Shown here one piece after another: positions 13,222 to 63,972 of a stretch of 64,000 bases of DNA (its first letter is position 1; each line of letters opens with the position of its first letter). A program made the position numbers and the translations under genes. The notes beneath the pieces were generated by a model. That model was not told the origin of the DNA. It ran no database searches and saw only the letters and a program-made list of their open reading frames with translations. The DNA comes from Candidatus Caenarcanales bacterium. GTDB taxonomy: Bacteria; Cyanobacteriota; Vampirovibrionia; Caenarcaniphilales; Caenarcanaceae. The DNA lies in the NCBI GenBank assembly GCA_041737745.1, contig JBGSRC010000008.1, positions 44,459 through 108,458 on the forward strand, in the 5' to 3' direction.

Positions 13222-13261
13222 GAAGTCTTGGTTTTGTTTTTACTGTAGGTTAGGGAAGTTT

Positions 13262-13300
13262 TTGATTATGAGGGGTCTTCGCCCCCTCAAACTCCCCCTT
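13262..13300. repeat. REP/MITE-like repeat end ('GAGGGGTCTTCGCCCCCTCAAACTCCCCC')
   Basis: Hairpin plus the family core CCCCCTCAAACTCCCC. Confidence 0.6.
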
Positions 13301-26295: not shown

Positions 26296-26400
26296 TCCAC
26301 AAATTAAGGGGGAATGGGGCACAGCCCCATGAAAAAAAAGGATCTTCCCCTCCCTCAGGGAGGGGATAGAGGGGTGGGTGTACGAATCAATTAAGCCCAT
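26296..26400. repeat. REP-like repeat cluster ('ATGGGGCACAGCCCCAT', 'CCCCTCCCTCAGGGAGGGG') directly after korA
   Basis: The palindrome CCCCTCCCTCAGGGAGGGG recurs at ~62125 and, as variants, at 39140 and 57750. Confidence 0.55.
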
Positions 26401-38257: not shown

Positions 38258-39772
38258 CTAATCCCAAGTTTCTCGGTAAACACCAGCCGGATCATAAATG
38301 TTCGCTTGGCGCTCAGGATTGAACACTCGGTCACGGGGATCGTTGCCTGTGCCGGCTAGATAAGCCCAATTCCCCCAATTGCTATAAACGTCATAATCGA
38401 CCAGAACACTCTCGAAATACTCGGCTCCTAGGCGCCAGTCCAAACAAAGCACTTTTGCGAGATAACTGGCGACGTTTTGCCTTGCTCTGTTGCTGGTGTA
38501 GCCAGTGCTGGCCAGTTCTTTCATTCCAGCGTCAATGAGTCTTTCGCCGGTTTTGCCTTGCTTCCAATGCTCAAAAGCGTTTTTGTCTTGGCGAAAGAAA
38601 GAAGCTTTGCCTGAGACCCCTGCCTTAGAGAAGAAAGCTTTGCCGTGCAACATGAACTGCCAGCGAAAAAAGTCGCGCCACAAGAGCTCAAAATACAACC
38701 AATAAGTTGACTCGTTTGCTCCTCGCTCGGCTTCATAGCTTTTCAGTTCTGCATAAATCTCCCGAGCTGAGATACAGCCTAGAGCGAGATAAACAGAAAA
38801 CTTGGAAGAGTTATCTTGGCCTAAGAGATTATTTCGGGTTTCTTTGTAGGTAGCTATGCAGTCTGTATCCCAGAGATAATGCTTCAGTCTTTTTAGGCCT
38901 GCTTCTCTTCCCCCTTGCAGGCCTAGGATCAAACTTCTATTTTCACTGTAGGTTTGGGGATTGTTTTCTATGGGGACGAAGTCCCCAAACCCCTGATTAT
39001 CTTTGAGGGATTGGGGTACTGCCAAAGCTCCTTGCAACCCTGCAATTATGCTTTGAGGGTATTCGTCGAGTAACTGTTCATGAACTTCCTGTCTTGGTAG
39101 GGTTTGGGGCGAAGCCCCATCAGGAAAAATCTCCCCATCCCTTAGGGAGGGGGTAGGGGGTGGGAAGGGATCAGTGCAAGAGCCTAAAAAAAGTGAGTTG
39201 CACTCTCCTGTCCAGTCTGGAAGAGGCGGAAGCAGGTCAGGTGCCCTCACAGGACTAGTGACAGTCCCCAAGCTCTCTAGTCTCTTTCGGAAAGAGGTAA
39301 ACTGCGGGCCAACGCTCTCTAGGGGAAACCCTAGATCATTTTTTTTATAGAGTGAGCCTGTCTCAAATTCCCTGACTTCTATCCCTAGGTGACGAATCTC
39401 GGCTAAGTCGGCTTCCTCTTCTGGCGCTGGCTCAGCGCTGACATGCACCAGTATTTGCTCAGGAGTAAGGCCAGAAAGCTCCATTAGTTGACTGAAGACA
39501 CTAGCTGCAGAGCCCTGCCGGATAAAGAGGCTAGAGCCTAGCTCAGTGAGAGCTTCTGACAAAGAATCCAAGCATTCTTGTAGGTGCTTACTTCGTCTCA
39601 GGGATAGACGAGGAAGTCTGCTAAGACGAGCCGGAGCCAGTTGGGTTGGGGTGAATAGATAGAGCGGTAAAAAACTCTGACAGCTCTCAGTCAGCTCAAG
39701 CAGCCCGGCATTATCGGCTAGGCGTAGGTCGTTTCGGAACCAAAAAATACCTAATTCTTTTTTTGCCTGCAC
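38258..39772 (-). CDS. Cryptochrome/photolyase family protein (CRY-DASH-like); interdomain linker contains repeat-derived sequence
   Basis: N-terminal photolyase alpha/beta domain ('GIFWFRNDLRLADN') and C-terminal FAD-binding domain ('WRDFF', 'TGYTSNRARQNVASYL', 'NWGNWAYLAG'). 504 aa. Confidence 0.85.
   Translation of the reverse strand: MQAKKELGIFWFRNDLRLADNAGLLELTESCQSFLPLYLFTPTQLAPARLSRLPRLSLRRSKHLQECLDSLSEALTELGSSLFIRQGSAASVFSQLMELSGLTPEQILVHVSAEPAPEEEADLAEIRHLGIEVREFETGSLYKKNDLGFPLESVGPQFTSFRKRLESLGTVTSPVRAPDLLPPLPDWTGECNSLFLGSCTDPFPPPTPSLRDGEIFPDGASPQTLPRQEVHEQLLDEYPQSIIAGLQGALAVPQSLKDNQGFGDFVPIENNPQTYSENRSLILGLQGGREAGLKRLKHYLWDTDCIATYKETRNNLLGQDNSSKFSVYLALGCISAREIYAELKSYEAERGANESTYWLYFELLWRDFFRWQFMLHGKAFFSKAGVSGKASFFRQDKNAFEHWKQGKTGERLIDAGMKELASTGYTSNRARQNVASYLAKVLCLDWRLGAEYFESVLVDYDVYSNWGNWAYLAGTGNDPRDRVFNPERQANIYDPAGVYRETWD
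38950..39170. repeat. Two REP-like units embedded in-frame in the photolyase/cryptochrome interdomain linker
   Basis: 'GGGGACGAAGTCCCCAAACCCCTG' (38962..38983) and 'GGGTTTGGGGCGAAGCCCCAT...CCCCATCCCTTAGGGAGGGGGTAGGGGGTGGG' (39101..39164) lie inside CDS 38258..39772. Confidence 0.6.
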
Positions 39773-45531: not shown

Positions 45532-45815
45532 AGGTTTTAGACTCATCCCCCCAGCCCCTTAAACCCCTCAGAGCAAGGACATTACTGAGACGGGCTTGGG
45601 TTGGACATGGCGTGGTAGGCAGTTAAGGAAAGACTGAATAACTCAATCAAGGGGGAGTTTGAGGGGGCCTTAGGTCCCCTCATAACAAATACTTCAAGTA
45701 ACCTCAAGTGACTCCAAACATTCCCTTAAGAACCAAACCAGAGTGAGACGGGCTCAAGTTGGACATGGCGAGGTAGACAATTGAGGTTCTAGAGGTTTTT
45801 ACTCATCCCCCAGCC
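45481..45815 (+). repeat. Three copies of the GT2 gene 3'-terminal segment (45481..45560 including the stop, 45583..45625, 45741..45815) interleaved with a REP/MITE unit (45645..45695)
   Basis: 'ACTGAGACGGGCTTGGGTTGGACATGGCGAGGCAGGCAGTTGAGGTT(G/C)TAGAGGTTTT(T)ACTCATCCCCC' is repeated with ~85-90% identity. Confidence 0.7.
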
Positions 45816-48198: not shown

Positions 48199-49872
48199 AT
48201 GCTGCAAGAATTGCGCTTGCAAAACTATCTTTTAGTACCTGAAGCTTGCCTGAGCTTTGGGGCTGGTCTAAATGTGATTTTGGGCGAGACAGGCTCTGGA
48301 AAGTCTATTTTGCTCGATTCGATCATTCATCTTTTTAGCTCTAGGCTCACTGGCGATCTGATTCGTTCTGGCCAGTCAAGAGCCAGTCTTGAGGCTAGTT
48401 TTAGCAAGACTAGTCTTCTTCAGTACTGGCTGGAGAGTACTGATCTAGAGCTGAGCGAAGAATCAGATCTGGTTTCTTTTAGTCGCGAAATAGGGGAGAA
48501 AGGAAGTAAGGCCAGACTGGATGGCACTCTGATTCCCTCAAAGATTTTGCCGGCTGCGCGCAAGGCTTTGCTGAGCTTTCATGGACAAGGAGAAGAGGAG
48601 CAGATCTTTCAGGAAGAGAGTCTGCTCGCTTTGCTGGACGAGAGAGCAGAAGATCCGAACCTTCTCACTAAATACAAAACGAGCTATAAGCTTTGGTCAG
48701 AACAGAAAGCTGCTCTTAGAGCCTTGGAGAAACGATCGGGGGATTTGGAGCGGGAAAAAGAGTTCTTGGCCTTTCAGTTGGCCGAGCTGGTCAACGCTAA
48801 ACTCACTAGCCCCGATGAAGAAGAGCTTCTGCAGGCCGAGTTGAATTTAATTGGCTCGAAAATCCAGCTGAAACAAATTCAGGCTGGCTTAGAGCAGACG
48901 GCTACCCCCTTCAAGCGGGCTTGTTACGCTGCAGCAAAAAAACTAGAAATTAATCCAGCCCTAGCCCAGCTCGCTACCCGGCTAAAATCGCTCGATCTAG
49001 AAACGCAAGATCTGCTCGCAACACTCAGTGAGCTACTTGGTGGTCTAGAGGAGACAGATAAAAAAACAGACCAGCTCAATGAACGCATTCATGCTCTTCA
49101 GCTCCTGCGCCGCAAATATAATCAAAGCGATCTATCCGCTCTGATTGCTAGGCGCGATGGGCTAGAACGAGAAAAACTGACACTCGATAATTTCGACTAT
49201 GAGTTGGCCAGTGGCCAAAGACAGCTGGCTTTGCGTGAGCAAGAACTGGCTCATTTGGCTCAGGATCTGTCGGCTCAAAGAGAAAAAGCAGCCCAAATGA
49301 TTTCTCAAGAGCTTTTGGCCAGAATCTCCGGTCTGGGACTAGAGAGAGCAAGAGTGAACTTTAGTGTGCAGCGCAAAGAGAGTTTTTGCCTTAGTGGGCG
49401 GGATAGAGCGAGCTTGCTTTTCAGTTCAAACCCCGGTGAAAAGCTCACTGACGTCTTGGAGACAGCTTCTGGTGGGGAATTGTCGCGCTTGGCGCTTGGT
49501 TTGCACACACTATCTAGCCAACTGGGCGCTCAGGTGCTGCTTTTTGACGAGATAGACAGAGGTACCAGTGGCCGTATTGCCGAGAGGATCGGTTGTTTAT
49601 TGGCTGAGCTAGCTACTAGAAATCAGATCATCTGTGTCACTCACCAGCCTCTGATCGCTTGCTTTGCCGAAAGGATTTTCAAGGTTTCTAAAAGCTTTGT
49701 CGGTGAAAGTACTGCTGTTGAGTTTCGGATGCACCAAAAAGAAGAAGAGATTGTTAGTGACTTGGGAGAGCTGATCTCAGGAGAGGGAGAAGAGGATAAG
49801 ATAGCTGCTTATGAATATGCCAAAGGACTTCGTGAAAAAGCATTACAGCTCAGCTCCCGCTCCGCTTTTTAG
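48199..49872 (+). CDS. recN: DNA repair protein RecN
   Basis: N-terminal Walker A 'ILGETGSGKSILLD', long coiled-coil middle, C-terminal 'SGGELSRLALGL' signature and 'LLFDEIDRG' Walker B; 557 aa. Confidence 0.9.
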   Translation: MLQELRLQNYLLVPEACLSFGAGLNVILGETGSGKSILLDSIIHLFSSRLTGDLIRSGQSRASLEASFSKTSLLQYWLESTDLELSEESDLVSFSREIGEKGSKARLDGTLIPSKILPAARKALLSFHGQGEEEQIFQEESLLALLDERAEDPNLLTKYKTSYKLWSEQKAALRALEKRSGDLEREKEFLAFQLAELVNAKLTSPDEEELLQAELNLIGSKIQLKQIQAGLEQTATPFKRACYAAAKKLEINPALAQLATRLKSLDLETQDLLATLSELLGGLEETDKKTDQLNERIHALQLLRRKYNQSDLSALIARRDGLEREKLTLDNFDYELASGQRQLALREQELAHLAQDLSAQREKAAQMISQELLARISGLGLERARVNFSVQRKESFCLSGRDRASLLFSSNPGEKLTDVLETASGGELSRLALGLHTLSSQLGAQVLLFDEIDRGTSGRIAERIGCLLAELATRNQIICVTHQPLIACFAERIFKVSKSFVGESTAVEFRMHQKEEEIVSDLGELISGEGEEDKIAAYEYAKGLREKALQLSSRSAF

Positions 49873-50830: not shown

Positions 50831-50855
50831 TGAATAAAAAAGAGCTCTAAAAAAC

Positions 50856-50927
50856 TGGGCCATGCGGGACTCGAACCTGCAACCAACTGATTAAGAGTCA
50901 GCTGCTCTACCATTGAGCTAATGACCC
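50856..50927 (-). tRNA. tRNA-Lys (anticodon CTT); CCA not encoded
   Basis: Minus-strand cloverleaf: acceptor 'gggtcat'/'atggccc', D-arm 'agctcaatggtagagc', anticodon stem-loop 'gctga-ctCTTaa-tcagt', T-arm 'ggttcgagtcc'. Confidence 0.8.
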
Positions 50928-51108
50928 ACTCAAGGCTAGTGAGTATAGCCCAAAATTTAGAAACTGTGTCCGACAAAAAATGAAAGCTTGAGCTGCTTGC
51001 CTGCAGCATTAAAGATTCTTTACTAGTTTAGACCGGTCAGGCATCACCTTAATATTCTCTTCACATGATAAATTTATTAATAGAGAAATTTATTAATTTT
51101 AGATTAAG

Positions 51109-52488: not shown

Positions 52489-52620
52489 AAGGGGAGTTTG
52501 AGGGGCAAAGCCCCTTTTGCGAAAGTTTTTTACCACAATCGATCTTAGGGTTTTGAGCTCACTTAAGGTTACTTGAAATATTTACCATGAGGGGACCTAC
52601 GGCCCCCTCAAACTCCCCCT
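52489..52620. mobile_element. Complete ~130-bp MITE-like element with terminal inverted repeats GGGGAGTTTGAGGGG / CCCCTCAAACTCCCC
   Basis: Left end 'AAGGGGAGTTTGAGGGGCAAAGCCCC' and right end 'GAGGGGACCTACGGCCCCCTCAAACTCCCCCT'. The internal segment 'CACTTAAGGTT..ATGAGGGG' is shared with the copies at ~56960 and ~57570. Confidence 0.6.
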
Positions 52621-52831
52621 GACAATTTGAAACGTAAGCCTAAAGTGATCTCAAAGTTTGGTTTTATTGCTGGAGGTTATGGGTTTTTCAGTGTTTCTTT
52701 AAGGTTAGAGAAATTCATCTAAACGGGGCTCCGCCCACAAGCACCTTTTCTTAGAGAGGGGAAAACAAGGCAAGATTTCAGTATTTTAAAGCAAGAGCTT
52801 GATTAACATTAGTGAGCTCAAAATCATCTCC

Positions 52832-56888: not shown

Positions 56889-56930
56889 GATATTTATTCA
56901 TACTATTTTAAGCTATTGGCATAGTTAGAC

Positions 56931-57023
56931 TGGTTCTCTTGTCTTTCAGTTAGCGAAGCGATTTATGAACACTTAAGGTTTTTGGAAGTAATAGCTATGA
57001 GGGGCAAACTAAGCTTGCATCAG
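56931..57023. repeat. MITE-family copy (direct repeat A) upstream of miaB
   Basis: 'TGGTTCTCTTGTCTTTCAGTTAGCGAAGCGATTTATGAACACTTAAGGTTTTTGGAAGTAATAGCTATGAGGGG' is about 90% identical to 57537..57612. Confidence 0.65.
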
Positions 57024-57247
57024 TTATTTCGAAGCATTGCTCTGAAGTCTTTGTAAGATTTTATGTTCTGCTCTTCTCTAAGGGGGGAGTTTGTGGGATC
57101 GCCGAAGGCCGAGTGCACAAAGTGCCGAGCTTTAGCCTTCATAGCCCGACTTGACACTGGAATAGACAGGGTTACTAGCAAGGTCTTTAAAGCTTTGCTT
57201 CAATTTATTGCCAAGCTGGCTTTTCCCGCCTTTAGATATAAGTCTAT

Positions 57248-57499
57248 CTAGGGGGCTTTGCGGGTTGCTCTCAGGCGCCGATCCTCTTCGTCCTGCTTGA
57301 TTACGTTGCGATTCAGATTGTCTACCAGCAACTGGGCTGTCCGATCCGCTTGCTCGCGGTTGGTTTCCTTGCGGACGTTCCCCGAGGAATCCTTGATATA
57401 CCCTTTCGGAAGAGGTTCCGTCTCTGCGAAGCTGTTCGAGTTGTTCTTTAAGTTCTGAATAAAGGCTTTCTCTATCACGATTATACCCCGTTTTCTCAA
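57248..57499 (-). CDS. Hypothetical basic 83-aa ORF bracketed by ~80-bp direct repeats (may not be a real gene)
   Basis: Lys/Arg-rich ORF lying between repeat copies 56931..57023 and 57537..57635. Confidence 0.25.
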   Translation of the reverse strand: MRKRGIIVIEKAFIQNLKNNSNSFAETEPLPKGYIKDSSGNVRKETNREQADRTAQLLVDNLNRNVIKQDEEDRRLRATRKAP

Positions 57500-57536
57500 T
57501 GTTTTCGAGTGTCGTTACAAAGGCTTCCCCTTACTT

Positions 57537-57635
57537 GGTTCTCTTATCCTCCAGTTAGCGAAGCGATTAACAACACACTTAAGGTTTTTGGAAGTAATAG
57601 CTATGAGGGACCTGCGGCTACTCAAACTCCCCGCT
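57537..57635. repeat. MITE-family copy (direct repeat B) ending in '...ATGAGGGACCTGCGGCTACTCAAACTCCCC'
   Basis: Matches 56931..57023 and the right half of the 52489 element. Confidence 0.65.
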
Positions 57636-57675
57636 TCTTAAGATCCATTGTGGTTTTAGAGGGTGACTTCCCAAA

Positions 57676-57704
57676 AAGAAAAAACCCTCGCAGAGGAGGG
57701 CTTT
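57676..57704 (-). terminator. Rho-independent-terminator-like hairpin (CCCTC-GCAGAG-GAGGG) flanked by A6 and T-run; stronger on the minus strand
   Basis: 'AAAAAACCCTCGCAGAGGAGGGCTTT'; an identical copy lies at 57921..57950. Confidence 0.45.
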
Positions 57705-57920
57705 AAACGCTTCTATTGCAAATCGAAAAGTAAGTTTGTGCCCACCCCCCTGCCCCTCCGGTGGAGGGGAGTTAATTTCTATGGGGGCTCTGCGTATCGG
57801 CCTAGCTAGGCACTCTTGCTACGCAGCCCCAAACCCCCTTCAAAAACAAGGGAAAACTAAAAATTTGCAAAAGACGTCAAAGTAATATCTCGATCCAGAT
57901 GATGCAAACTAAGTTTGCAA

Positions 57921-57950
57921 AAGAAAAAACCCTCGCAGAGGAGGGCTTTT
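57921..57950 (-). terminator. Second copy of the same terminator-like hairpin
   Basis: 'GAAAAAACCCTCGCAGAGGAGGGCTTTT'. Confidence 0.45.
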
Positions 57951-58453
57951 GGATTGAAGGAGGAACTGTATTACGAATAAATCAATCAATAATCGTCTTA
58001 ATTGTAAATAAAAACAATAAAGACTTATGTACTGATAATCACTCGAATATCTATTGAAAAAAATAATGAACTTGCAAATGTTTCACCTTAGGGTGGGTTA
58101 AACCCTAAAGATCCACAAACAAGATAATACACTAGCTGAACTAAAAAGTCATGACCTATGGGTGAAATCTTGCTAAGAGCTTTCAGGCGATCGGGCTAAG
58201 CAAAGCCGTTTCGACTGATTAGATCCAGCAAAAGACTCTCCTAGTCCTAGAAGTTACTGTCAGTCTCTATGACAAAGTCCTTTCAGGGCAGTGATCCGGC
58301 CGAAGCTGCAATAATCAAAAGTGTGTAAAGGGTTTACACGAGCCGGATTCCAGAGCCTATATCGCCAAGTCCAATACTCCACTTCTCTCGTTTGCCTTCT
58401 CAAATGAATCCCCCGAATCGGAGTCCGGTTTTTACTTTTTTTGGAGAGTATCT

Positions 58454-59023
58454 ATGGAAAATACCAATAGTCCACCCCCTCAAGTTATCCCCCCAAGCGA
58501 TAATCAAGTCCCCCAAGCAGATCAAGCAGTCTCTTGGAAAGAAGCAACCAGTATCTTAAATGAAACTATAGCCCACAGCCCAGCCCTAGAGCGCGTAGCG
58601 CAAGAACAAGGCTATCACTGCTTTGAAGAAGCTTATTTTCAGCATTACGGAAATTATCTGCAAGCGCTGAAAGCTTCTTCCTCAGACCCGCAAGCGAGAG
58701 CGATCACCGGTCAGCTGGAAGGGCTCTGGTTCGCCGGAAAATACGCTGATGCTCTGCAAGTCGCTTCTCGTTACTTTGGGAAAGTGGCTCAAACAAGCCA
58801 AGCTCCTCAAAGCCTGCAGCCCAGACACCAAAGCGGCAATGAGGGATATTTGGGGGCTTATCCCTTTCGCTCTCGCCAAGAGTACCAACAAGCTTCCCGT
58901 TCGCAAGACCCTAGAATGCGCGAAATGGCCCAAAAAGCCTGGAGAACATGGCTAACTACCTATCGCCGCGATTCTAATAATCCTCAAACCCCCTACCCAA
59001 TGGAGACTAACCCCAATGCCTAA
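58454..59023 (+). CDS. Hypothetical Pro/Gln-rich protein (candidate scaffold/cargo of the downstream HK97-fold protein)
   Basis: 189 aa, disordered Pro-rich N-terminus, Gln/Ala-rich. Overlaps the next gene by 8 nt (translational coupling). Confidence 0.4.
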   Translation: MENTNSPPPQVIPPSDNQVPQADQAVSWKEATSILNETIAHSPALERVAQEQGYHCFEEAYFQHYGNYLQALKASSSDPQARAITGQLEGLWFAGKYADALQVASRYFGKVAQTSQAPQSLQPRHQSGNEGYLGAYPFRSRQEYQQASRSQDPRMREMAQKAWRTWLTTYRRDSNNPQTPYPMETNPNA

Positions 59024-59936
59024 TATCACTCGCTCATCGTTGAGCGCTCAGTTTTCTAATCCTGTTGCCGATAAGATCCTCGAATATCTTTACGATTATC
59101 TGATCTTTGCGCCGCAATTTTTTGATGCCGAACATGGCAACCTGATCTCACAAGATCCGATGGACAAACGCCCGAAGATCTTCGATGCCTCAAAGTATGT
59201 CAAACGGGCTTATTCTCGTGGCGAGACGATCAAAATCCCCAACATACCGCGCCTCTATGCCCAAGATAAACTAGCAGACACCGAGATCACCGATCAGTCG
59301 CTAAACGTTAGCAGCGTCTCGCTCACTATCACCACCCACAAGTATGTCAGCGTGGTTTTGGAAGATTCGGCCGAGGCTTTCGACAATACAGCTATGGTCG
59401 AAGAGATGGCTAAGCGCGAAGCTCGTGCGCTTGCCGAAGCCTTTGAAGATTCGGTGATCGCTACTTTCGGTGACTTTGCCACAGTAAATGGAGGCGGAGT
59501 TGGTGATGTTTTGAGTTTCGATGATTTTGCGGTTTGGAATAGGACTTTCTTCAAGAAAGGCGTCAATCTCGATCATTCACCGGCTTGGGCTATTCTCACT
59601 CCCGAGCAGTATTCTGTATTGGCCACCACTCGTGATGAGTTCACTGTGGCTGGCGAAAAAGGGCTTGGCACCTTCAATTCTGGCCGAATCATAGAGACTC
59701 CCCATGGGATTTATGCGCTTCGTTCGAATCGTCTCAGTTCATCTGGTGGGTCTGCTACTGGTCTATGCTTTACTGAGAATGCTTTGATGTGTGCTTTTGC
59801 GATCATGCCTCGTTTCGTTGAGACTCGCGATGATCGGAAGGTTGGGATTCGTTTTTATGCTGACTTTATGGCTGGAGTGGCTAAGCTGAGAGACGAAGAA
59901 GGTATTAGGCTGAACTTTGACGCTGATAGCGTTTGA
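59016..59936 (+). CDS. HK97-fold major capsid protein / encapsulin-like shell protein
   Basis: By eye it is collinear with T. maritima encapsulin and T7 gp10 over the E-loop/P-domain region. The matches are 'LEDSAEAFDNTAMVEEMAKREARALAEAFEDSVIATFG' to '...LDLWELDNLE..VAEFEDEVIFRG', and 'SGRIIETPHGIYAL' to 'GGKIITTPRIEDAL'. 306 aa. Confidence 0.5.
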   Translation: MPNITRSSLSAQFSNPVADKILEYLYDYLIFAPQFFDAEHGNLISQDPMDKRPKIFDASKYVKRAYSRGETIKIPNIPRLYAQDKLADTEITDQSLNVSSVSLTITTHKYVSVVLEDSAEAFDNTAMVEEMAKREARALAEAFEDSVIATFGDFATVNGGGVGDVLSFDDFAVWNRTFFKKGVNLDHSPAWAILTPEQYSVLATTRDEFTVAGEKGLGTFNSGRIIETPHGIYALRSNRLSSSGGSATGLCFTENALMCAFAIMPRFVETRDDRKVGIRFYADFMAGVAKLRDEEGIRLNFDADSV

Positions 59937-60089
59937 TGTTGATGCAATTACTTGATTGGTTTTATTAAGCATAGGAGCCTCTTAAAGAATTTACGGGGCC
60001 AAAGCCCCAAGCCGCCTTTCTTAATTTGAAGAACAACCCACTTTTTGAAGTAACTAAAATCCCCAACTAAAAAAAAGAGAAAAAAATAA

Positions 60090-60893
60090 ATGATCGACTT
60101 TGAAAAATTCGTCGGCGATCTGGAAGCCCTCAAAAACCATGGAGGTTCCTCCAAACGCCTTAACCACTTCGACCCTCGTGACCAAAAAAAGCTAAAACAA
60201 GCCTCCCAAGATCTCGTCCTCCTGAATAATACCGGCAGACGCCTCTTCATCACCAATCAACTCGGCTTTGTAAATTATTTCAATGTCCAACCCGATGGAG
60301 TCAAGCACCTAGTCGATCTGATCAGACCCTATTGGCTCGGCCTCCCCAATACCTTTGAACAACCGCTCTTCGATACAGCCAGTCAAGTACAAAGCTTCAT
60401 CACCGAACGCCTAGTGGCCGACTTGGTCGAGATGGTCTCCTCTTGGCGCCTGAACTTTGACCGGAATCCTGTCCCAATCAGAAAAAAAGGCCTAAGAAGC
60501 TTCAAGGGCTACAAATCTCGCCCCTACCGCGAATGGTTCAAAGATCACTTTGCCGAGAGTACCTATACCTACGATGTCGTGATCGCTCTAGCCGAAGACA
60601 AACCGCTCACTATCCCCCGCAAAACTGAGCTTTGGGGCATGGGCGGAGAGCTGCTGAGCGAAGAAGAAGAGCTACTGGTCAGGCAAGATCTCTCGGCTGA
60701 TCCTAAACCAAAGCTGCTCCAGTTCATCGAATCTGTCCCAAGCGATCTCTGGGAAATAAAATCTCAAGCTCGCACTGGCCTAGAAGAGCTAGAGCTGAGA
60801 GGAAAAATGCAACAGCTCGAAAAAGAAATAGAAAGCCTGAAAAATCTAAAAACATCCCTCACCAAACAAAAAGGAAAAGAAAATAATGTCTGA
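60090..60893 (+). CDS. Hypothetical protein with C-terminal coiled coil
   Basis: 267 aa; C-terminus 'ELELRGKMQQLEKEIESLKNLKTSL'. No motif. Confidence 0.4.
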   Translation: MIDFEKFVGDLEALKNHGGSSKRLNHFDPRDQKKLKQASQDLVLLNNTGRRLFITNQLGFVNYFNVQPDGVKHLVDLIRPYWLGLPNTFEQPLFDTASQVQSFITERLVADLVEMVSSWRLNFDRNPVPIRKKGLRSFKGYKSRPYREWFKDHFAESTYTYDVVIALAEDKPLTIPRKTELWGMGGELLSEEEELLVRQDLSADPKPKLLQFIESVPSDLWEIKSQARTGLEELELRGKMQQLEKEIESLKNLKTSLTKQKGKENNV

Positions 60894-61257
60894 AATAGCA
60901 AACATGATTTTGTGCAATGGCACAGTAGATCTCACCAATGGCAGTAGTGGCGTGACTTTTAAGGTCGATCGGGCGGGAGATCTGATACTGGGCGAATGTT
61001 TTGTCGAACTTTTGACCGGAGTAGTAGGCACAACTACTGCCCCTATTGTCGGCATTTCTATAGCTGGTGCTGAGCAGGGTTCAGTTACTGCCCCCAATGC
61101 TAGACCGGCTGGCGATTTGCTGCGTTTTGCGCCCACTACACAAAGAGGGCCTGCTATCAGGCTTTCAGCCGGTGAGACAGTTCGAGTCTTCACCAAGACC
61201 GCTGCTGCTGGGGGCGTTCCTGCTGGCAGTTTGCGCGTGTTTCTTGCCTTGAAGTGA
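60886..61257 (+). CDS. Hypothetical small Gly/Ala/Thr-rich beta-type protein (possible phage decoration/fiber-like)
   Basis: 123 aa; overlaps the upstream gene by 8 nt. Composition typical of small beta-sandwich phage structural proteins. Confidence 0.35.
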   Translation: MSEIANMILCNGTVDLTNGSSGVTFKVDRAGDLILGECFVELLTGVVGTTTAPIVGISIAGAEQGSVTAPNARPAGDLLRFAPTTQRGPAIRLSAGETVRVFTKTAAAGGVPAGSLRVFLALK

Positions 61258-61269
61258 TTTCTTAAAACT

Positions 61270-61956
61270 ATGCCATCACAAATACTTGAAATAGTGAATC
61301 AAGCCCTAGCGAGGCTAGGGGAAACGCCTCTGAGTGCAGCCGAATATGACTTTGGTTTGGAGCGACATCAGCTCATTTTGCGCGAGGCCGTTCGTGAGTT
61401 TTGGGAGAAGACCATCAATCTAGCCAAAGACGATCTGAAATATTATTTCGAGCTGAGCACTGTCACTGGGCAGGGTCTTTACGCTCTTGGTTTTGAGCCT
61501 CTTGAGCTTGCTAGCACTCAGCTTTTTCTGCTCGATCCAAGCGCAGGGCAAGATAGACTTTTAGGCCGAGTCTTAGAAAAAGACTTGCTGGTGGATACTG
61601 GGGGAGATCTAGCAAATCTTCCTTCCGGCAAGCCTAGAGATTGGTTTGTGGCTCATACCAGTTTGGCCGGTGAGAGTAGGCTCGGTTTTGCTCCAATTCC
61701 GGATAATATTTACACGATTCGGATCTATAGGCAGCTGGCTCCGGCGGCTCTTAGTGCTAGCTCTGTCTTGATGGCCAATCGTTTGGCTCTAAGTGCTATG
61801 CGTCATTATTTGGAGTGGGTTTTGGTTCGTGAGGAGGGATTTTCTTCTGCTCCAGATTTTGAGCGTCGTTTTGAGGAGGCTTGGCATGAGTACATTGGGC
61901 GGAGCGCATCTTCAGAAAAGCGTAATCTTTTTCAATGGCCTTATCAGCAGAGCTAG
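61270..61956 (+). CDS. Hypothetical protein with N-terminus resembling podovirus tail tubular protein A (T7 gp11-like adaptor)
   Basis: 'IVNQALARLGETPLSAAEYD' versus T7 gp11 'VNDILASIGEPPVSTLEGD' (recalled from memory); 228 aa. Confidence 0.35.
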   Translation: MPSQILEIVNQALARLGETPLSAAEYDFGLERHQLILREAVREFWEKTINLAKDDLKYYFELSTVTGQGLYALGFEPLELASTQLFLLDPSAGQDRLLGRVLEKDLLVDTGGDLANLPSGKPRDWFVAHTSLAGESRLGFAPIPDNIYTIRIYRQLAPAALSASSVLMANRLALSAMRHYLEWVLVREEGFSSAPDFERRFEEAWHEYIGRSASSEKRNLFQWPYQQS

Positions 61957-62100
61957 AGTCCCCAAACCCCTATTCAATTTGAGCGACTTAACAATATATA
62001 GCGTGGCTTTTTAGAGCTGTTCAGCGTTTCATGAAGAACAGGTGGAGTTTGAGGGCGCTAGCCCTCAAGGAAATAAACTTCACTAACCGCAAGTGAGCCC
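61957..62100. repeat. 143-bp direct repeat, copy 1 (starts right after the stop of 61270..61956)
   Basis: About 93% identical to 62162..62304; contains 'GTCCCCAAACCCC' and 'GGTGGAGTTTGAGGGCGCTAGCCCTCAAGG'. Confidence 0.75.
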
Positions 62101-62161: not shown

Positions 62162-62304
62162 TTCCCCAAACCCCTATTCAATTTGAGCGACTTATCAATA
62201 TATAGCGTGGCTTTTTAGAGTTATTCAGCGATTCATGAAGAACAGGTGGAGTTTGAGGGCGCTAGCCCTTAAGGAAATAAACTTCACTAACCGACAGTGT
62301 AAGC
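62162..62304. repeat. 143-bp direct repeat, copy 2 (ends at the stop of the recombinase-like gene)
   Basis: See copy 1. The 61-bp spacer carries the palindrome CCCCTCCCTCAGGGAGGGG. Confidence 0.75.
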
Positions 62305-63165
62305 TCAGCCTTCTAAAACCTCAAAGACCTTCTCGTGAATTCTTCTCAATACCCCAAGATCAAACTTGCTTTTCTTAACCAGAGAGGCAAGTTTTTTCCT
62401 ACCGACCATCTCCCGCGCAAAGAACAATCCATCTTTCTCAATCAGTGAACGCTCAGCATAATCTTGCAGATCTACCGGTGAAAGATCTAAGCCAAAGATT
62501 TTTTTCGCAAGTCGCCTAACAGCCGTAGCCAAATAAACTGGCTCAGTCTTCTCTCCCTTCCCCTTGCAAAAGACGAACTCGGCACTTTTAGCCTGCTTTC
62601 TAGATTCTTCTATCAAATCCACCAAATTTGGATCAATTGGCAAAACGCGCATCCGACCCTTCCGCCCAAGCGTGATATGCGATTTCCGACCCAGACTGAG
62701 ATCTAACCAGCGCAATTGGGAGATCTCCTCAAGCGAGGCCCCAGTAAAAGCCAATAGCGCTAAAAGCAATCGCTGAGCCGGCTTGAGTGTTTCATTGTCT
62801 GCTAGCAAAAGCTCCAGATTGGCTGCTGAGAGGCTTTGCGCTTTGGGAGATTGTTTGGCTTCTTTTGCCTTAAAGCGCCAAGGTAAAGCTAGACGTTGAT
62901 CTATGCTCGCTAGCTTCTTTTCCCCCAGCCAGAGCAGAAAACATCTGATATTTGTAGCTCTTCGCTGCCCGATTCGACGACTGCAGTCGCCTACTAAATC
63001 TAGAATCTTTTCGCTATTTAGAATACTAAAATCGAGTTTGCCTGAGCTGGCCGTTGCTGCGAAGAGAAAGTTTAAGTCGAGTTGGTAGAGTTTGGCGCTG
63101 CTCTCTAGGAGGGCTTTGTCTAAAATAAAATCATCTATAAACCCTTGGAATTCGCTCTCAGTCAT
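62305..63165 (-). CDS. Tyrosine-recombinase (XerC/XerD/phage-integrase) homolog with all catalytic residues substituted (predicted inactive)
   Basis: Collinear with XerD: a SAM-like N-domain ('RRATNIRCFLLWL'), then 'LLALLAFTGASLEEISQLRWLDL' aligned to 'LEVLYATGLRVSELVGL' (Arg to Ala/Ser), 'GRKGRMRVLPIDPNLVDLI' aligned to 'GKGNKERLVPLGEEAVYWL', 'LSPVDLQDYAERSL' aligned to 'LSPHVLRHAFATHL', and 'MVGRKKLASLVKKSKFD' aligned to 'LLGHSDLSTTQIYTH' (Tyr to Phe). 286 aa. Confidence 0.5.
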   Translation of the reverse strand: MTESEFQGFIDDFILDKALLESSAKLYQLDLNFLFAATASSGKLDFSILNSEKILDLVGDCSRRIGQRRATNIRCFLLWLGEKKLASIDQRLALPWRFKAKEAKQSPKAQSLSAANLELLLADNETLKPAQRLLLALLAFTGASLEEISQLRWLDLSLGRKSHITLGRKGRMRVLPIDPNLVDLIEESRKQAKSAEFVFCKGKGEKTEPVYLATAVRRLAKKIFGLDLSPVDLQDYAERSLIEKDGLFFAREMVGRKKLASLVKKSKFDLGVLRRIHEKVFEVLEG

Positions 63166-63458
63166 CGGATGCCGTATTCAGCTAGTCTCTTAACCACATC
63201 TTTTTTGGAAAAAGAACAACCGTTGATTGCCTCAAAGGCTTTTTCTTCCGTTTGCTCTTGCAGAGCAAGAAGCTCCAAACCAAATTCTTGACAAGCAGCT
63301 CTCAGCGCCTGATAGTATTGATCGAAGAGCGCTTTTTTGATCGGTTCCGGCACAGTCTCAAATATGCCGATGGTCTCGTCCCAGAGAAGATCTGTTCTAA
63401 ACTTTACGATCGCCGCCAGAACCAGTTCTTGCGATGTTTGTTTGTTTTGCTCCATCAC
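63162..63458 (-). CDS. Hypothetical protein, translationally coupled upstream of the recombinase-like gene
   Basis: 98 aa; 4-nt overlap with 62305..63165. Confidence 0.4.
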   Translation of the reverse strand: MMEQNKQTSQELVLAAIVKFRTDLLWDETIGIFETVPEPIKKALFDQYYQALRAACQEFGLELLALQEQTEEKAFEAINGCSFSKKDVVKRLAEYGIR

Positions 63459-63462
63459 CGGC

Positions 63463-63972
63463 TCAGCTCAAACTCCGGCTTAATACAGCCATCTCCAGAG
63501 CAGCCAACATCGCTTCGCGCCCTTTATTTCCCATAGAGCCGCCAGCCCTAGCTAAGGCTTGTTCGAGATCGTTGGTGGTCAGCACGCCCATCCCTATTGG
63601 GACACCGGAAGCAAGACCAATCTCTCCCAGTGCTGGAAAGACAAATGACGCAATGTATTGATCATGATCTGTTTCGCCCTTAATGATCGTACCAAGGCAG
63701 ACGAGAGCATCGTATTTGCCGCTTTCAGCGAGCTTTTTGGCCAGAAAAGGCAACTCATAAGAACCTGGCACAAAATAAAATTTGATGTTTTCAGACTTCC
63801 CTTCCAGTTCAGTGAAACAATCAAAAGCCCCCTGAAGAAGCTTGGCGTTCACTGCTTCGTTCCAGCGAGCCATCAGCACAGCAACCTTCAGATCGCGAGC
63901 AGAAGGATTTTCGCTAGAAGGTCTAGGCGGACTAAAACCCATTAGACATTCACCAGCTTGCGGCCAGAGCAA
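63463..63972 (-). CDS. ribH: 6,7-dimethyl-8-ribityllumazine synthase
   Basis: 'KVAVLMARWNEAVNAKLLQGA', 'FVPGSYELPF' and 'GETDHDQYIASFV' motifs. Probable start at the internal Met ('MGFSPP', ~63942). Confidence 0.8.
   Translation of the reverse strand: MLWPQAGECLMGFSPPRPSSENPSARDLKVAVLMARWNEAVNAKLLQGAFDCFTELEGKSENIKFYFVPGSYELPFLAKKLAESGKYDALVCLGTIIKGETDHDQYIASFVFPALGEIGLASGVPIGMGVLTTNDLEQALARAGGSMGNKGREAMLAALEMAVLSRSLS

Follow-up and report, generated by a model that had tools for sequence, protein, structure and literature searches.

Is the XerD-like protein encoded beside a cluster of phage head genes in a Candidatus Caenarcanales genome still a recombinase, is it what remains of the integrase of a neighboring prophage, or has the host put the recombinase fold to another use? 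The stretch of DNA analyzed here (64,000 nucleotides; hereafter the window) encodes this protein, P0001, in an uninterrupted reading frame that belongs to a short cluster on the minus strand:

62305..63165, minus strand: Xer-like gene, predicted to be catalytically dead, encoding P0001 (286 aa, ATG start, stop codon included)
63162..63458, minus strand: orf98 (97-98 aa), conserved, function not assigned
63463..63972, minus strand: ribH, lumazine synthase (TIGR00114, E=2e-44), the first visible gene of the cluster

The three genes are co-directional and closely packed. The start of orf98 lies 4-7 nt past the ribH stop, and its TGA stop shares bases with the ATG start codon of the Xer-like gene (ATGA), an overlap that points to translational coupling. 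The promoter and terminator scan returned nothing above shuffle expectation and no minus-strand promoter-like site within the cluster. The arrangement implies that, in the window genome, ribH, orf98 and the Xer-like gene are co-transcribed and translationally coupled, as far as gene order can indicate. A decaying or frameshifted pseudogene was also considered for P0001; it is ruled out by the intact ORF, the alignment of its C-terminus to the end of XerD, and the conservation of the family described below.

The first-pass annotation had taken P0001 for a homolog of XerD and phage integrases along its whole length, and profile, PDB-alignment and fold matches all bear this out. The Pfam model PF00589 matched at E=4e-7 (30.4 bits versus a gathering score of 27.1), in an alignment that spans only profile positions 3-142 of 172 and leaves the section with HxxR, H and Y outside. 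The NCBIfam XerA, XerD and XerC models matched at E=1e-10 to 6e-7, with their equivalog cut-offs missed by a wide margin (41.2 versus 220 bits for XerA, 34.1 versus 329.6 for XerD and 29.1 versus 335 for XerC), and the PHROG_1 integrase profile matched at E=4e-10. Furthermore, a family profile built from 13 sequences aligned with E. coli XerD (1a0p) at E=9e-18, residues 6-282 against 6-290, and also matched archaeal XerA and XerC-like proteins, XerH and P2 integrase in the PDB. The best structural matches of P0001 were XerD (1a0p), archaeal XerA (5hxy/4a8e) and XerH (5jk0). These results confirm that P0001 is a full-length tyrosine-recombinase homolog, at a significance well above chance. Separately, the family profile matched chain 14 of PDB 9i5v (401 aa, E=2e-6), a chain of a ribosome structure that bears the name 'Ribosome-associated translation inhibitor RaiA'; over residues 6-294 it aligns as a Xer-type recombinase domain (GLRRSE, GKRNKERIVPF), an odd fusion or a naming issue that is unrelated to the window.

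The AF2 model of P0001, computed from an alignment of 13 sequences, had a mean pLDDT of 85.6 and a pTM of 0.56, the latter leaving the orientation between the two domains uncertain. The two-domain fold, a helical core-binding domain followed by an alpha/beta catalytic-type domain, is kept in the predicted structure, and no arm-binding domain or other extra domain was found in the 286 aa:

62881..63165, minus strand: core-binding (SAM-like) domain, residues ~1-95, where the family is most strongly conserved
62308..62838, minus strand: C-terminal catalytic-fold domain, residues ~110-286, without catalytic residues (from predicted secondary structure and hexad mapping)

The core-binding domain is modeled as helices at residues 3-17, 21-38, 51-57 and 63-82, and its conserved residues are F13, Y27, D30, L31, R64, R68, N72, R74, F76, W79 and L80, with Y27, D30, R68 and R74 aligning with Y29, D32, R74 and R80 of XerD. 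In the C-terminal domain, P0001 retains E147 (the structural Glu, E151 in XerD), R173 (R177) and G255 (G269), as well as a C-terminal helix carrying L273, H277 and F281 that aligns with the XerD C-terminus, H277 corresponding to XerD H291.

Does this well-preserved fold still hold an active site? The catalytic hexad was mapped in a MAFFT L-INS-i alignment of the family with XerD and 16 canonical matches. Over residues 6-290, the XerD sequence used there is identical to that in the PDB alignments, and the numbering R148/K172/H244/R247/H270/Y279 proved correct. An hmmalign alignment to a canonical-only HMM left the C-terminal half of the family unaligned, and the L-INS-i and family-profile-to-XerD alignments were used. 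The hexad positions fall as follows, each assigned by alignment:

62734..62736, minus strand: codon of S144 at the catalytic Arg-I site (XerD R148), motif FTGASLEE
62662..62664, minus strand: codon of R168 at the catalytic Lys site (XerD K172), motif LGRKGRMR
62464..62475, minus strand: V231-D-L-Q234 in place of H-x-x-R (XerD H244/R247), motif SPVDLQDY
62398..62400, minus strand: codon of R256 at the His-III site (XerD H270), motif VGRKK, which opens a basic G-(R/K)-K-(K/R) patch
62350..62382, minus strand: residues 262-272, LVKKSKFDLGV, the segment expected to hold the nucleophilic Tyr, without a Tyr

Thus the R-K-H-R-H/W-Y set is not found in P0001, which has S144, R168, V231, Q234, R256 and no Tyr. 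XerD Y279 falls opposite an alignment gap, and the only tyrosines of the protein are Y27, Y211 and Y236, none of them in the last 50 residues. The earlier reading that every catalytic residue had been replaced therefore holds, with no intact set elsewhere in the protein, and the motifs it quoted (FTGASLEE, VDLQDY and a second His changed to Lys/Arg) are present as quoted. It had also put a Phe at the Tyr position; the loss of the Tyr is correct, and the assignment to F268 depends on the alignment, as counting back from H277 gives K265 with the Tyr missing either way. Judged from its residues, P0001 is thus a homolog of an enzyme family and not itself an enzyme of the tyrosine-recombinase family: with Arg-I, Lys, His-II, Arg-II, His-III and Tyr all replaced, DNA cleavage and rejoining would be impossible.

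Is the loss peculiar to P0001? When 1.84 billion representatives were searched exhaustively with phmmer, 70 matches emerged, 12 of which are full-length relatives (P0002-P0013, 26-38% identity), the rest being canonical recombinases and a few fragments. A word-index search found P0001 alone when run with the single sequence, and P0001 and P0012 with the family profile. We compared 17 family sequences, namely the 13 cluster representatives and the members encoded in loci L002, L003, L004 and L008. They are 26-38% identical to P0001 and up to 57% identical to one another, and each is encoded by an intact ORF of about 286-322 aa; even the closest pairs, at no more than 57% identity, are saturated at synonymous sites.

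The ortholog search for the same substitutions found the loss shared by all 17 sequences. Arg-I is never R; the site holds S, T or N and occasionally L, Q, I or P. Both His-II and His-III are missing throughout, the latter site being K or R in 15 of the 17, and the conserved Tyr is missing in every member. Arg-II is kept solely in P0007 and the Lys solely in P0009 and P0011, the catalytic-Lys site being mostly E, D, S or N in the others. On the other hand, almost all of the other full-length phmmer matches carry the R-K-H-R-H-Y hexad or a near variant. The presence of intact ORFs at high divergence, together with a shared catalytic loss, indicates purifying selection on a non-catalytic function.

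Could the family nevertheless be active through unconventional residues, as a recombinase or a topoisomerase-like enzyme that uses, for example, Y236 as its nucleophile? Active recombinases are known in which a single hexad position deviates, and Y236 lies two residues past the former Arg-II site and occurs in about half of the family. Here, however, six positions were lost together, no alternative Tyr or Arg is conserved family-wide, and P0001 has three Tyr in all. Furthermore, MrpR is inactive in vitro despite its retained Lys and Tyr (PMC10516654). We consider residual catalysis extremely improbable.

What selection kept can be read from the conserved columns. The invariant positions are F13, D30, L31, R64, R68, N72 and R74, and also K222. 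The conserved motifs are NSxRAY..DL and QRRxTNIRxFLLWL in the core-binding domain and TGxxLEEL; E147, R173 and G255 are conserved as well, as is a basic patch, G(K/R)K(K/R), where His-III used to be. The motifs TG..EL and G..R..P and the C-terminal L...H helix are common to the family and the Xer recombinases, and the pI lies between 8.0 and 10.0 in all 17 sequences. The conserved basic core-binding helix, K222, the basic patch and the pI point to DNA binding, which would most simply be the non-catalytic function under selection. A non-catalytic DNA-binding role is, on these conserved residues, the most reasonable reading.

Where do the genes of this family reside? Genome and metagenome locus scans, both relying on one short peptide pattern, gave five genomic loci, all in Candidatus Caenarcanales, Caenarcaniphilales or Caenarcanum bioreactoricola MAGs, and four more metagenomic loci; L007 duplicates L002. 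All homologs that bear an organism name come from MAGs of Caenarcanales, an order of cyanobacterial relatives that do not photosynthesize, placed in the class Vampirovibriophyceae of the phylum Melainabacteria. The nine genomic contexts other than the window contain housekeeping neighbors and no phage genes. The neighborhoods include:

L002: a pstS-like gene, ribH, the orf98 homolog and the Xer-like gene, with PFK two genes on
L003: prfA, divergent
L004: aspS, then dprA abutting the Xer-like gene
L005: a Ser/Thr kinase gene
L006: trpE and a fabG-like gene
L011: a PNP-family gene
L013: an SCP2 gene and rpsP
L014: hemN, pcrA/uvrD and comEC

The order ribH-orf98-Xer-like gene is found in three genomes (the window, L002/L007 and L008) and also on L001, a Logan contig from another sample. 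The scan of IMG/VR viral contigs turned up no family member, and PADLOC gave no defence-system match for the Xer-like gene, orf98 or the head-module proteins described below. P0001 is therefore probably a chromosomal host gene product rather than that of a prophage gene, to judge from these contexts. The family, known so far only from Caenarcanales (Melainabacteria), appears to have been inherited with the host chromosome. Some members lie near genes of DNA uptake or repair: dprA is directly upstream in L004 (8791-9999), comEC and pcrA/uvrD flank the gene in L014 (2281-8498), and a purine DNA glycosylase gene is near in L013 (9015-9611). Such neighbors are too few for an association.

The window genome alone has phage-like genes next to the Xer-like gene, in the form of a five-gene head-protein cluster that is convergent with it (58454-61956, plus strand) and separated from it by 349 nt of non-coding DNA. 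Its genes and the repeats that follow are:

58454-61956, plus strand: head cluster, comprising in order a 189-aa ORF, the major head protein gene, a 267-aa ORF, a 123-aa ORF and the adaptor gene
59016-59936, plus strand: major head protein (phrog_267, E=7e-19; PF25209)
61270-61956, plus strand: SU10-type adaptor (PF24175, E=8e-8)
61959-62095 and 62163-62299: two 137-nt direct repeats, 95% identical, between the head cluster and the Xer-like gene
39100-39165, 26325-26378, 52551-52621, 45650-45724 and 13242-13299: related repeat pieces, intergenic

Portal, terminase and tail genes were not found in the 64-kb window. For the capsid protein, INPHARED and IMG/VR yielded no relatives, and its PDB sequence matches were at chance level only. 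The head cluster may have been left behind by a prophage, or it may be a satellite-like capsid island. In L001-L010, tblastn found no match to the capsid, adaptor or other proteins of the module, and the gene calls of L011-L014 include no phage families. Upstream, about 1.5 kb between a miaB-like gene and the head cluster (56900-58450) holds no convincing ORF; it includes duplications at 56931-57003 / 57536-57609 (spacing 605 nt) and at 57674-57704 / 57919-57949 (100% identical).

The two 137-nt repeats are pieced together from a dispersed intergenic element (REP/MITE-like), which recurs at five or more other sites in the window and in which a GAGGGCGCTAGCCCTC hairpin comes after a GGAGTTTGAGGG core. 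They are in tandem, on one side of the head module only, and neither they nor the surrounding region matched Rfam. Since they belong to a dispersed family, the repeats are not att-type sites tied to the Xer-like gene, and the earlier pairing of P0001 with adjacent '143-bp' repeats falls away: the repeats measure 137 nt, recur elsewhere in the window and are not specific to this gene. Contig L001 breaks inside the 137-nt repeats, which fits a repeat-caused assembly break. Elsewhere in the window, a 69-nt inverted repeat (45650-45718 / 52552-52620, 87% complementary) brackets 6.8 kb that encode ScpA, an AI-2E transporter, an SMC/AAA-type ATPase (48199-49872), tRNA-Lys (50855-50928) and family-less ORFs; it may be a member of the dispersed repeat family or mark the ends of an element.

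Could P0001 be a degenerate integrase that came from this capsid/adaptor module and, once the prophage had been domesticated or had decayed, stayed on as a regulator? The first-pass annotation had proposed just such a history, in which the neighboring phage-like module was domesticated and the protein retained. The convergent head genes at 349 nt, the two direct repeats in between and the existence of recombinase-fold phage repressors (PMC10516654) would fit this reading. It is, however, already largely refuted. The nine other contexts are free of phage neighbors and IMG/VR holds no family member; the ribH-orf98-gene synteny is conserved in genomes without the capsid module; P0001 is a Xer-type protein that lacks an arm-binding domain; at least 17 homologs have the same substitutions; and the repeats are part of a dispersed intergenic family. 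The active-site loss predates the divergence of the family and hence the insertion of the head module. Because the loss is older than the juxtaposition, descent from the head module is not supported, and we regard it as very improbable.

What, then, might the protein do? We think it rather probable that P0001 is a Xer-derived, non-cutting pseudo-recombinase that serves the host as a site-specific architectural or regulatory DNA-binding protein. It would keep the two-domain C-clamp, made of the core-binding domain, the catalytic-domain fold and the C-terminal helix, and would still clamp duplex DNA at specific sites, held there by the core-binding helix and the basic face of the C-terminal domain. 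Through the retained C-terminal helix, the protein would probably assemble into dimers or higher oligomers. Bound in this way, P0001 may act as an architectural or regulatory protein that bends DNA, as has been described for the MrpR/SroF and TnsF type of protein discussed below. A search 600 nt upstream and 400 nt downstream of ten family genes found no Xer-site-like palindrome and no shared 10-mer.

This lack of a DNA target near the ten loci raises the question of whether the fold has been re-used beyond duplex-DNA binding, for example, in RNA binding or as a protein scaffold with orf98. The close coupling to this small, conserved gene would fit such a role: in three genomes, orf98 sits between ribH and the Xer-like gene and abuts or overlaps the start of the latter, with homologs in the same position at L002 (9688-10005) and L008 (2141-2464). 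The remodeling of the former active-site pocket, with conserved E146 and K257 and S/T at the Arg-I site, would fit as well. The orf98 product is predicted to be helical and is 42-43% identical across the three genomes; it had no Pfam, PHROG or PADLOC match, a word-index homolog search returned only orf98 itself, and its single-sequence AF2 model (pLDDT 52) was set aside. On the other hand, orf98 is missing at L003-L006 and L011-L014 and thus partners only part of the Xer-like family, and the most conserved residues are those of the basic, DNA-contacting core-binding helix common to XerD. Moreover, to our knowledge, every characterized non-catalytic relative with the recombinase fold binds DNA. 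A role away from duplex DNA therefore seems improbable to us.

The main rival to an independent DNA-binding protein is a dead partner beside an active Xer. P0001 would then have no catalytic part of its own and would serve an active Xer recombinase as a subunit or regulator in a degenerate heterotetramer of the XerC/XerD type, filling one dif-like half-site or docking by its C-terminal helix and thereby positioning or gating the active Xer. In Xer and Cre tetramers, the subunits contact one another through the C-terminal helix. In P0001, this helix is kept and conserved, unlike in the streptococcal YnbA (PMC1914069). The closest canonical relatives are XerD, XerA and XerC; the family genes lie amid housekeeping genes, as xerC and xerD do; several neighbors belong to DNA metabolism (dprA in L004, comEC and pcrA/uvrD in L014); and Xer/dif is poorly defined in the cyanobacterial lineage, dif prediction being known to fail in cyanobacteria, whose XerCD proteins diverge strongly (PMC3025954). 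However, no second tyrosine recombinase was found in the 64-kb window or in L001-L010 (about 135 kb), and the ten family genes have no dif-like palindrome near them. Both active sites are intact in all two-recombinase Xer systems known to us. We rate a dead partner as unlikely.

A more far-reaching proposal, which we offer as a long shot, is that Caenarcanales turned an ancestral Xer recombinase into an order-wide, vertically inherited, non-catalytic chromosome protein. It would either be a dead partner, marking or gating a dif-like site at the terminus for a single active recombinase, or organize the terminus or nucleoid, together with orf98 in part of the lineage. If this were true, a bacterial, host-encoded housekeeping recombinase would have become an architectural protein, and the family would offer a handle on the undefined Xer/dif biology of the cyanobacterial lineage.

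How does the non-cutting DNA-binding protein that we favor compare with known systems? Like P0001, the Xer recombinases have about 290 aa in a two-domain layout without an arm-binding domain, align with it end to end, and are encoded among housekeeping genes. P0001 differs from them in the replacement of all six catalytic residues, in scores below the equivalog cut-offs, and in having neither a dif-like site near the family genes nor a partner in the window or L001-L010. The nearest conceptual analogue is YnbA (NCBIfam NF002685), a 'XerD-like' protein of streptococci and lactococci that is chromosomal, conserved lineage-wide, devoid of recombination activity and of no known role (PMC1914069). 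YnbA lacks two tetrad residues and the extreme C-terminus (PMC1914069; Le Bourgeois et al. 2007), whereas P0001 lacks the whole hexad, keeps the C-terminal helix and comes from a different phylum. With 36.2 bits against the NF002685 cut-off of 178, the two are not the same family.

Among phage proteins, MrpR/YopR has the recombinase fold, has lost recombinase function and binds SPBRE repeats (PMC10516654). MrpR (PDB 8a0a) and SroF (9rd5) are recombinase-fold master repressors of SPβ-like phages (PMC10516654; bioRxiv 10.1101/2025.11.27.690993). Those proteins are phage-encoded and control lysis-lysogeny, whereas the P0001 family is chromosomal with no member on viral contigs; MrpR retains Lys and Tyr, and P0001 has neither. 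The family-profile search of the PDB gave no similarity to MrpR or SroF at E<=0.01. TnsF, the target selector of Tn6022-like Tn7 transposons, has an inactivated tyrosine-recombinase domain (PMC10293859) and resembles P0001 in being a recombinase fold without catalysis, used solely for DNA-site recognition and bending. However, TnsF has about 500 aa and N-terminal zinc fingers and resides within a Tn7-like transposon; P0001, at 286 aa, has neither feature, and no transposase genes were found near it. The domesticated recombinase folds of eukaryotes, namely Ndc10/CBF3, the Crypton-derived QRICH1 and the plant ALOG domains (PMC3212892, PMC3537659), are transposon-derived and bear only a distant likeness to P0001.

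Pseudo-recombinases as a kind are already known; the family described here is an undescribed, narrowly distributed one. What is new is that the catalytic loss is common to the family and not peculiar to P0001. Databases label its members as recombinases: P0004 is named 'tyrosine-type recombinase/integrase [Candidatus Caenarcaniphilales bacterium]' at NCBI, and P0003 is named 'XerD' at IMG. With 'integrase' labels of this kind, marker-based tools would call a mobile element or the edge of a prophage in error, here beside real phage-like genes. Recognition of an inactivated Xer-like family would thus lead to cleaner annotation and corrected mobile-element calling.

Furthermore, the family adds a host-chromosomal case, besides YnbA, to the recombinase folds re-used for DNA binding, such as MrpR/SroF and TnsF. 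As a host-encoded, fully inactivated Xer derivative, P0001 is of moderate interest, and it provides a tractable protein for the Melainabacteria, a lineage without genetics in which Xer/dif is poorly understood.
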